A stretch of 64,000 nt of DNA, from the IMG/VR virus record IMGVR_UViG_3300028840_003168; one strand, 5' to 3'. The notes below the pieces were generated by a model, which ran no database searches, had not been told where the DNA came from, and saw nothing but the letters and a program-made list of their open reading frames with translations. The DNA comes from a virus. Below, piece after piece: positions 9,477-13,616 of the stretch. Numbering within the stretch: the first letter of the stretch is position 1; each line of letters starts with the position of its first letter. The position numbers and the translations under genes were made by a program.

Positions 9477-9492
9477 GAAAGGACGGAAGACT

Positions 9493-10794
9493 ATGGGAAA
9501 TCCATACACAAGAGTCAGTCGTAAAAGTCGTCGTCCTGCCGTTCCTTCTCGTTCAGCGCGAAGGACCAGTAAGCCGCGTCGTCGCCCCATTACCGCAGCC
9601 CGTAAGCCGCGTCGTAAGCCTGCCGCAGCTCCCAAAAGGGGCCGTATGGCAGCGCGTCCGAAACGCCGGTTGACCTCCAAGAGGGATGAGGCTGTATTCG
9701 GTCGGGATGGTCAGTTCAATCCGCAACGATACGATTATGGTGGGTATGACCCCAAGCGTATTGCAAATGCGGTTGGCAATCGCAGACGCCCGATGTTCAA
9801 CAGTCAGGGTGAGATCAACGCCGACAACAAGCGCGATGCGCTGGTGCAGATCAAGCATCTGCTCGGTTCGGTTGGTCCCCGGCATCAGGACGCCCTGAGC
9901 CTGTACAATCCCAACTCTCCCCAGGAGAAGATGAGCAAAGAAGCACGTAGGGATATCCTTGCTGCCGCGCTCACCGATCCTTCGGGTGCCGGTTGGCACG
10001 TTGTTGGTCAGGAACTCGCTCTGCCGATCAAGCAGATCCTGGACTATGAAGGGTTCGCCCGGAAATGGTACCAGATCCGCGACCTCGCCCAAGGCGAACT
10101 GTTCCGCGTACCCGTGGATGTTCGTTCGGTGGCCTGGGTTGTCGGTCAGGACGGCCAGGTGCCCGAAGCACGGATCAAATCCAAGTGGATTACGCCGAAA
10201 GAGGATAAGATTGTTTCGTATCCCACCGTGGATATCGAGGACATCTACCACCTCAATTTCGACGTTCTGGACCGCGCCCAGGATACCGCCCGTCAGGAAA
10301 TCGAGCTGGCTGAAGACAAGCTCGGCATCCTGCTGGCTGACGCCGCTTCGACCGCGCAGAACACCGTGACCACCTACTCGACTCTCGGTATCAACGCCCT
10401 TGAGGACGTTCGGTTCCAGGTTGAGAGGCACCGCCTCATGGTTGAGAAGTATTTCATCAACCGTGCGGAGCTTTCCGACATCATCAAGACCATGTCGGCT
10501 GCGGTGGACCCGGTTACCGAGCGTGAGTTGATCCTCGCGGGTCACATCGGCAACATCCTGAATGCCCAGATCCTGACTGCTGCCGGGACTGGCGTTGAGG
10601 AAGTGATTCCTGCCGGTACGTTCTACGCCACTACCGCCTCCGAGTACTACGGCGTGATGGGTATTCGCATGGACTTGTTCAGCGAACCCTTCAACAAGTA
10701 CTCCCACATGGAAACCGTTAAAGGCTGGGCCTTTGCGGAGATCGTGGGTTTCGCTTGCGCGAACTCGAAGGCCGTTGCCAAGGGTGTGAAGTAG
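9493..10794 (+). CDS. Major capsid protein (HK97 fold, Bxz1-like type)
   Basis: ATG 9493 with AAAGGA RBS and strongly biased codons. GQELALPIKQILDYEGFARK...VSYPTVDIEDIY...QEIELAED resembles recalled cluster C mycobacteriophage capsids. Confidence 0.88.
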   Translation: MGNPYTRVSRKSRRPAVPSRSARRTSKPRRRPITAARKPRRKPAAAPKRGRMAARPKRRLTSKRDEAVFGRDGQFNPQRYDYGGYDPKRIANAVGNRRRPMFNSQGEINADNKRDALVQIKHLLGSVGPRHQDALSLYNPNSPQEKMSKEARRDILAAALTDPSGAGWHVVGQELALPIKQILDYEGFARKWYQIRDLAQGELFRVPVDVRSVAWVVGQDGQVPEARIKSKWITPKEDKIVSYPTVDIEDIYHLNFDVLDRAQDTARQEIELAEDKLGILLADAASTAQNTVTTYSTLGINALEDVRFQVERHRLMVEKYFINRAELSDIIKTMSAAVDPVTERELILAGHIGNILNAQILTAAGTGVEEVIPAGTFYATTASEYYGVMGIRMDLFSEPFNKYSHMETVKGWAFAEIVGFACANSKAVAKGVK

Positions 10795-10904
10795 ACGATC
10801 TGGGGGTTTGGTTTTTGTTCCCTGGTGGGTGCGGTAGCCCCCCACTGCCGCACCCGCCGTATTAACCCCGTGCCTACCAGGTGCGGGAGGGTTAGGCGAG
10901 AGCC
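10795..10904 (+). ncRNA. Structured intergenic RNA element (two GC-rich hairpins, possible pseudoknot or switch)
   Basis: 14-bp stem 10824-10837/10845-10858 and 9-bp stem 10867-10875/10879-10887. Loop CCCCCA is complementary to TGGGGG at 10801-10806. Confidence 0.5.
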
Positions 10905-11726
10905 TTGTCGAATGGCCAACACAACAAAGTTTCAGTTCTTGATGTGGACAACCGGCATATTTCCTATACCAACCCGGCAAAGGCCCGGATATTGGTCAGG
11001 GATGGCAGGGCTACCGTCTTCAACGCAAACCCATTCATCATAAAGTTGAATGGAGAGAAAAGGACGGACGAAATGAAAAGATTCAGAAAAGCAATCAAGA
11101 GCTTCACCGATTACTTCAAAGAGGAAAGGGACGTGTATGTTCAGAACCTCTCCAATACCCAGATTTCCCTGGGATTCGGTGTGGCGCCAAACAACTCCTC
11201 GGCCCTTATCCCGGAGACCAGGAAGCCGTACAATCTGTCTCAGTACGTGCCTTTCAAGGATTTGAAGAATTCGGTGGATTTGCGGAAGATGCTGAACCGA
11301 AAACCTGCCACGCTCATTCTTCTGGAAGAGGAAGAGTACAACCAGTTCTATGAGGACCTGGCGGCTAAGAAAGGTACCACCGCGGACGAGGAGATCATCC
11401 AGGCCAATGAGGAGCAGCAGGCCCTGATGAATAGGTCTTCCTATGTGGAGCGCGAGAAGAAGGCTTCAAAGGATGCGGATGAGGCGGTGGAGGAAGAGAT
11501 TAAAGAGGGTCAGGCGCCCGATCAGGAGCTGCCTGAGATGCCTCAACCCCGGATTATTGGTATGTGCGCTGATGACAAGCTGACGGCCACTGACTTCCTT
11601 GAGAGGTTGAGCATGATGGATGATGCCGGTGACCTTTCCGATGCCGATTTCGAGTACCTCCAGAGTAATGCTCCCAAAAAGTCGGTTAAGAACTGGGCGG
11701 TTAAGCAGCTACAGTCTTCAGACTGA
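10905..11726 (+). CDS. Post-capsid protein with N-terminal PLMP/RRXRR-like domain; second in-frame start at 11073
   Basis: VSVLDVDNRHISYTNPAKARILVRDGRATVFNANPFIIKL matches the IscB N-terminal consensus. Internal RBS AAAGGACGGA precedes ATG 11073. Confidence 0.65.
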   Translation: MSNGQHNKVSVLDVDNRHISYTNPAKARILVRDGRATVFNANPFIIKLNGEKRTDEMKRFRKAIKSFTDYFKEERDVYVQNLSNTQISLGFGVAPNNSSALIPETRKPYNLSQYVPFKDLKNSVDLRKMLNRKPATLILLEEEEYNQFYEDLAAKKGTTADEEIIQANEEQQALMNRSSYVEREKKASKDADEAVEEEIKEGQAPDQELPEMPQPRIIGMCADDKLTATDFLERLSMMDDAGDLSDADFEYLQSNAPKKSVKNWAVKQLQSSD

Positions 11727-13346: not shown

Positions 13347-13616
13347 ATGAGACTCAGAGGGTTATCGGATAAAGGTGTTTGCCGGATTTCCAAGAAGGTT
13401 GCGGCAAAAAAAGCGGTCAGTGATGATCAGACCTGGGACAAGATAGACTTTCTCGTAGAAATGTTGGGCAACGAGGAGTTCATTCTGGCCACCTACAAAG
13501 GTATGGGCAGAGAGGAAGCTGACAGCATGATCGATTTCCTGTTCCAGACCTATGACTTGGGTAGGGAGTGGGATATTCATACTGGGGCGGTAGATCCTGA
13601 CGATGAGGACTACTAA
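13347..13616 (+). CDS. Leader-bearing acidic protein (putative internal head protein)
   Basis: Leader MRLRGLSDKGVCRISKKVAAKKA, then an acidic helical body. Confidence 0.6.
   Translation: MRLRGLSDKGVCRISKKVAAKKAVSDDQTWDKIDFLVEMLGNEEFILATYKGMGREEADSMIDFLFQTYDLGREWDIHTGAVDPDDEDY

Follow-up and report, generated by a model that had tools for sequence, protein, structure and literature searches.

In an uncultured phage that belongs to a large family, the gene directly behind the major capsid gene encodes a conserved post-capsid protein whose N-terminus is extended, in frame, by an IscB/IsrB-type PLMP domain. Its leader contains a short hairpin element that resembles the end of an omega-RNA and that recurs before a putative tail-assembly-chaperone gene. 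The fusion is real and conserved, and it is not described in the papers searched: by title and abstract, we found no report of a nuclease-free PLMP/RRXRR protein in phages or of such an exaptation, and the original OMEGA study (Science 2021) might mention such fusions. We think it probable that domain and element form a domesticated repressor/operator pair, through which the protein would autoregulate its long isoform and control the tail chaperone by binding and repression.

The window, as we call the whole 64-kb stretch of DNA that was analyzed, is part of a complete phage record of 157,936 bp (~158 kb) with terminal repeats, and it contains portal, protease, major capsid, sheath, two tube and tape-measure-like genes. 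The closest annotated relative is the uncultured virus Rctr197k, with 57% capsid identity; cultured relatives, among them Erwinia jumbo phages and cluster C mycobacteriophages, share a capsid identity of ~25%. The major capsid gene (9493..10794, + strand; PHROG 2522) is followed by an ORF of 273 aa (10905..11726, +) with TTG as its start. The predicted long isoform encoded there, delimited by the ORF, profile matches and a structure model (AlphaFold, mean pLDDT 81), comprises from N- to C-terminus the PLMP domain, a linker predicted to be disordered, an alpha/beta domain without known function, an acidic helix and a C-terminal helical domain. Fold searches with the middle domain matched no solved fold (best Z, 4.7; otherwise unnamed viral Atlas clusters alone), and those with the C-terminal domain returned generic helical matches and nothing else. 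A predicted short isoform of 217 aa, beginning at a second start (11073..11726, +), is equivalent to the PLMP-free form of the post-capsid protein: PHROG 17686 matched its residues 16-214 in a profile search, and structural homologues from this PHROG, 203-246 aa long, occur in PaBG, Motura and other cultured jumbo phages. In several relatives, added genes separate the capsid and post-capsid genes (L019 1294-2971, L296, L260 4150-4750); in L019 the PLMP is retained and the leader element is absent. Small acidic ORFs at window positions 13347, 14066, 19533 and 20080 share a similar basic leader (MRLxGL..).

Residues 7-54 of the long isoform (10923..11066, +) are a true IscB/IsrB PLMP (RRXRR) domain, as the original prediction had proposed. 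The Pfam search suggested alongside it was run, and RRXRR (PF14239) matched residues 9-62 at 33.9 bits (E 3.7e-8; cut-off, 25) in an alignment that covers model positions 1-54 of 174 and then stops. With the first 56 aa as query, phmmer found TbaIscB (9K30, E 1.6e-7) and DtIsrB (8DMB, E 2.8e-4), and residues 7-54 of the AlphaFold model superimposed on the PLMP of four IscB/IsrB structures, sharing their beta-sheet plus helix fold, with Z scores of 6.5-8.1 and rmsd values of 2.2-3.3 A over 46-48 aligned residues. Foldseek also returned IF3-N for this region, more weakly. The original prediction had named small HNH proteins as a possible alternative origin; the closest relatives found for the PLMP region are IscB proteins, and the best plasmid matches to the N-terminus of the 273-aa protein are for the most part annotated as IscB. 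The literal PLMP motif of IscB is absent, being HISY here and FLSY in the family consensus. The prediction that no nuclease domain follows also stood: we found no RuvC with a bridge helix in the 273-aa protein and no HNH Pfam match in it or its fusion homologues, the part after RRXRR being taken up by PHROG 17686. The 158-kb genome contains no second PF14239 match and, at E<=1, no HEARO RNA (RF02033). This is not an OMEGA nuclease system. One further protein (P0269, 219 aa) has a phage-type PLMP (FLSY) without a core-domain profile match, possibly reflecting another fusion partner.

The in-frame fusion of PLMP to the post-capsid protein is present in ~130 homologues. When orthologues beside related capsid genes were checked for retention of the domain, as the original prediction had advised, PLMP was in frame in nearly all viral loci found, almost always right behind the capsid gene. 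As annotated, 126 of 180 core-domain homologues carry it, scattered across the entire tree. Three entries annotated as PLMP-less (P0003, P0140, P0128) had an in-frame PLMP upstream once their DNA was inspected, which indicates that many "short" entries owe their length to the start that a gene caller picked; G006, G034, G035, G036, G039 and others truly lack the domain. The extension is optional only insofar as there are two starts or as some lineages have lost the domain; most relatives have it in frame. The domain is under purifying selection, with dN/dS values of 0.04-0.3 among unsaturated pairs, 7 synonymous changes and 1 non-synonymous change relative to the closest relative, and a frame that stays intact over capsid identities as low as ~55%. 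It is present once per genome, at the post-capsid gene, in 13 of the 14 genomes searched; the several copies and variable sites of a mobile IS element are not seen. One subclade has a tandem double PLMP before the core domain (L052 2698-4005, L053 2389-4002, L250; P0072, P0087).

Within the long reading frame lies an internal ribosome-binding site with the second start, ATG 11073 (11059..11075, +). The decamer AAAGGACGGA stands at 11059-11068 before this ATG and at 9478-9487 before the capsid ATG at 9493, which bears out the predicted identity of the two sites. An ATG or GTG with a Shine-Dalgarno (SD)-like sequence is found in the linker of most of the 35 loci examined. Because this internal start and its SD are conserved and the linker is predicted to be disordered, both isoforms are likely made. 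In the subclade that unites the window with L001, L010, L011, L012 and L013, the long isoform always starts with TTG, which sits at, or a few bases past, a small hairpin; in other subclades the start is ATG or GTG.

Between the capsid stop and the TTG, the 110-nt intergenic leader contains three hairpins. Hairpin A (10824..10858, +), just 3' of the capsid stop, is conserved in position and not in sequence; it precedes a U-run in several relatives, in the manner of a terminator-like or 3'-protecting stem, and stands outside the AC..AG element. Copy 1 of that element (10863..10889, +), recognized by covariation and a descriptor match, consists of TAAC, a 9-bp stem at 10867-10887 and AG. On its 3' side, GGGAGG (10885-10890) is likely the SD of the long isoform. 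The third hairpin (10894..10905, +) is a 4-bp, SL8/TH2-like GNRA hairpin between SD and start, whose last base is the T of TTG. Hairpins two and three covary, with double changes in 8 of 9 pairs (0/500 shuffles) and far lower values in slid controls; the alignment behind these figures was fitted to the structure, having been realigned through the covariance model since MAFFT misregistered the variable hairpin. A covariance model built from 12 leaders recovered held-out leaders, including that of the window (E 1e-6), and an Rfam scan of the leader gave no match. Of 33 phage leaders, 23 have the element within 90 nt, and 28 have it when a longer span is searched; PLMP-positive loci without an own-leader copy are L019, L040, L041, L052, L053 and L259. 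In one subclade (L003 5810-5958, L042-L045), ~150 nt of conserved, structured RNA make up the leader, in which the element is followed by four hairpins and then the ATG; this RNA may be a switch or a small RNA.

The element has a counterpart in IscB loci, where the HEARO match stops just 5' of a hairpin made up of AC, a C..G stem and AG, with the 3' side forming the SD. A descriptor of this arrangement, AC-[C..G stem]-AG, matched 59 of 69 IscB leaders, at the omega-RNA end where published structures place PLMP; shuffled means were 0.4-0.6, and the descriptor matched 1 of 72 sequences inside IscB and 20-24 of 1564 other gene starts (~1.5%). The IscB leader set is mostly cyanobacterial, and the descriptor is short and was written after part of the data had been seen. 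Specificity of the AC and AG flanks was seen in each of the three leader sets (IscB, own and chaperone) and not in background. The phage-leader covariance model R1, which is dominated by phage sequence, gave no match at the leaders of 62 IscB loci, and the structure descriptor, with its shuffled and internal controls, replaced it for this comparison. Copy 1 thus likely corresponds to the omega-RNA terminal hairpin (SL7/TH1), a homology that we regard as likely rather than proven because the model missed the IscB leaders and the descriptor followed the data. The solved structure of DtIsrB shows PLMP bound to SL7/SL8, the two 3' hairpins in tandem, where it stabilizes the first at its base and also contacts the SD; its authors suggested that IsrB autoregulates through PLMP (PMC9581776). 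In OgeuIscB, recognition of the terminal hairpins is mainly independent of sequence, and in IscB/IsrB the PLMP packs on RuvC and TI (PMC9640706). Given this packing and the sequence-independent contacts, an isolated PLMP may bind weakly or need the domains fused to it.

The sole other match of the own-leader model in the genome, a weak one (E 0.25), lies at 25263-25311, adjoining ORF 25304; unprompted, the model also matched the orthologous leader in G002, G003 and G005. Copy 2 (25265..25287, +), supported by the model match and by inspection of orthologues, comprises TCAC, a 6-bp stem at 25269-25285 and AG. Inspection places a 4-bp GAAA hairpin over the SD (25292..25303, +), directly 5' of ATG 25304, and an extra short copy (AC, CCC-GCAA-GGG, AG; 25239..25254, +) just 5' of copy 2, the latter in this genome alone among those scanned whole. 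Also by inspection, the element occurs at this site, with compensatory changes, in G001, G004, G007, G008, G010 and many fragments. In total, 16-18 of 22-23 such leaders have it, versus ~1.5% of other gene starts, as do 3 of 4 further PLMP-positive genomes, and in whole-genome scans of eight phages these two leaders were the only widely conserved sites. The 3' side of the element is itself the SD in G007, G008 and G010, ~8 nt before the ATG; the window's subclade has a separate SD downstream of the hairpin. In L052 and L053, the own leaders lack the standard element and the chaperone leaders have a long-stem variant with the end CGA.

The gene behind copy 2 (25304..25876, +; 190 aa) is a putative tail assembly chaperone and the candidate target. 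It lies after the sheath and two tube genes and before the tape-measure-like genes; it has no PHROG match, and its Atlas leads, Phage_TAC_5 (18% of cluster) and Phage_TAC_1 (45%), are weak (0.90-0.91). Two successive ORFs (window 25304-26526) stand after the tube genes and ahead of the tape-measure-like genes, an arrangement like that of chaperone G/T pairs. We considered the portal gene as a third target in G002 and G005 and rejected it; the two matches differ in place, and orthologues are without them. A third copy stands before orthologous genes of 106-129 aa at G007:C1:48466 (+) and G008:C1:154593 (-); their products are 34% identical, beta-rich by eye and possibly Sm-like, and no homologue was found in the other six genomes scanned. 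The original prediction had raised control of capsid-operon expression, which finds no support: the own-leader element lies 3' of the capsid gene, and in this genome we found no copy where the capsid, scaffold and protease genes start.

Element and domain occur together. Among loci outside those used to define the element, 8 had both (one duplicate removed), 2 had PLMP without the element, 8 had neither and 0 had the element without PLMP (Fisher p 0.001, uncorrected for relatedness). In one of the two exceptions, L286, an element with G-U pairs can be seen by eye. None was found at the chaperone site of six PLMP-less phages (G006, G034, G039, G035, G036 and PaBG), which are mostly fragment records and in two of which, G035 and G036, the post-tube gene was unmatched by the chaperone profile; no PLMP-less phage checked has the element at either site. 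PLMP-positive phages without a chaperone-site copy are Rctr197k, G021, G037 and possibly G032.

These observations suggest the following model. An IscB/IsrB-type element would once have sat just 5' of the start of the old post-capsid gene and shrunk to PLMP and the two 3' hairpins of its omega-RNA; PLMP would then have fused in frame, with the original start persisting as ATG 11073. The two-start layout fits such a history. Through its PLMP, the long isoform would bind the AC-[stem]-AG hairpin at its base, both in the leader of its own mRNA and in that of the tail-chaperone mRNA; as the hairpin overlaps or abuts the SD, 30S loading would most likely be blocked. The outcome would be negative feedback on the long isoform and a tail-chaperone level set late in infection, with the short isoform made independently of the feedback and chaperone output tied to a head-operon protein. 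Tailed phages are known to keep the dosage of this chaperone under tight control. As expected of a repressor/operator pair, a conserved structured site is found at the ribosome-binding region of both the own and the target gene. The original pairing of a domesticated RNA-binding module with the upstream RNA is strengthened by in-frame selection, the covarying hairpin and the omega-RNA-end signature, from which we infer binding. Binding of both mRNAs by the long isoform is the simplest account, since a hairpin acting in cis needs no partner and a relic would not be copied to a second leader.

Other readings deserve weighing. It is conceivable, if unlikely, that the same sites are bound without repression, the protein instead activating translation, stabilizing the mRNA or tethering mRNAs to the assembling head or tail via its C-terminal domains. 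Positive loops on a protein's own synthesis are less usual, and we favor repression because the element's 3' side is the SD in G007, G008 and G010, where a protein that stabilized the hairpin would hide the SD and block initiation. A weak TTG with a hairpin between SD and start could nevertheless need a helper, PLMP resembles IF3-N (Foldseek; PMC9581776), and the fused partner, encoded directly behind the capsid gene, could be an assembly factor. We find it quite improbable that the hairpins stand alone, masking the SD or binding a host factor, with PLMP kept for a protein-level role and the omega-RNA likeness due to convergence on a short anti-SD hairpin. The element is indeed short, pairing of GGAG with a C-rich arm is a generic means of damping translation, the phage-built model gives IscB leaders no score, and a few PLMP-positive genomes do without the element. 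Yet the unpaired 5' AC, needless for SD masking, is fixed in three leader sets and not in background, the chaperone-site hairpin in the window's subclade has a separate SD downstream of it, and at neither site does a PLMP-less phage have the element.

The history of the domain could also differ from the one that we propose. The original prediction had allowed for a relic; in its neutral form, an IscB insertion would be untranslated or tolerated and the gene would truly begin at 11073. Gene callers frequently pick this second start, and the first is a TTG here, but purifying selection with a frame intact to ~55% capsid identity, a covarying leader RNA and a second conserved site 14 kb away largely refute the idea, which we consider extremely improbable; nor would the element of a relic vanish together with PLMP. 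In a reversed direction, the autoregulatory pair of phage-type PLMP and hairpin would have come first, to be taken up later by the RuvC ancestor of IsrB/IscB; this reading agrees with the repressor mechanism and differs in origin alone, and we hold it to be doubtful. A 45-column tree, which is unrooted, short and limited to IscB near the phage profile, joins its IscB PLMPs in a single supported group (99/90), around which the more diverse fusion PLMPs branch without resolution, and PLMP has been described as a domain gained by a RuvC ancestor and related to IF3-N (PMC9581776). Set against this, PLMP-free forms of the gene occur in more distant phages, and IscB is far more widespread.

Returning to the repressor/operator pair, we lean slightly toward a broader view in which PLMP and AC-[stem]-AG are a self-contained, portable operator pair (~45 aa and 25 nt) that serves this clade as a small translational regulon, linking a head-operon protein to tail-chaperone synthesis, with target sites gained and lost by lineage. 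If the model is true, part of an OMEGA system has been domesticated without nuclease or guide, and an RNA-end-binding domain and its site have been reused for mRNA control in phage assembly. It would provide natural evidence for IscB/IsrB autoregulation through PLMP and, for a large clade of uncultured phages, a point at which the dosage of the tail chaperone is controlled. With domain and site found here apart from any nuclease, and the site present in a second leader as well, the proposal that IscB/IsrB expression is regulated by PLMP covering an SD hairpin (PMC9581776) can be tested directly. The system also bears on the origin of PLMP in the Cas9 lineage and possibly offers a very small orthogonal RNA-protein tag.

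Compared with known systems, the module is closest to the IscB/IsrB OMEGA elements (IS200/IS605; 8DMB, OgeuIscB 7XHT, 9K30; HEARO RF02033), with which it shares a homologous N-terminal PLMP and an AC/AG-flanked hairpin with SD, often with a second hairpin, directly 5' of the start. It differs in that the phage protein is without RuvC, bridge helix, HNH, guide and omega-RNA core, and in being single-copy and fixed in a morphogenesis operon, with a second site in another gene's leader. The PHROG 17686 proteins of PaBG- and Motura-like jumbo phages are homologous or structurally similar to the C-terminal part; they are 203-246 aa long, near the size of the short isoform, and PaBG is without the element before its post-tube gene. 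TldR, a domesticated TnpB repressor also found in phages, is likewise an OMEGA-family component turned gene regulator. However, TldR retains a guide RNA along with an inactive RuvC and acts on DNA to repress transcription, whereas here the RNA-end-binding domain alone is kept and the target would be mRNA. Among phage translational repressors are T4 gp32, gp43 and RegA and the MS2 coat protein, the last with an operator hairpin. Like these, the phage protein would bind structured leader RNA that covers the ribosome-binding site, both for its own gene and for another, and in one possible drawing of the element a bulged A lies beside the basal C-G pair, which may make it similar to the MS2 operator. 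The proteins are unrelated, and in the present case both domain and operator appear to derive from an RNA-guided transposon system.
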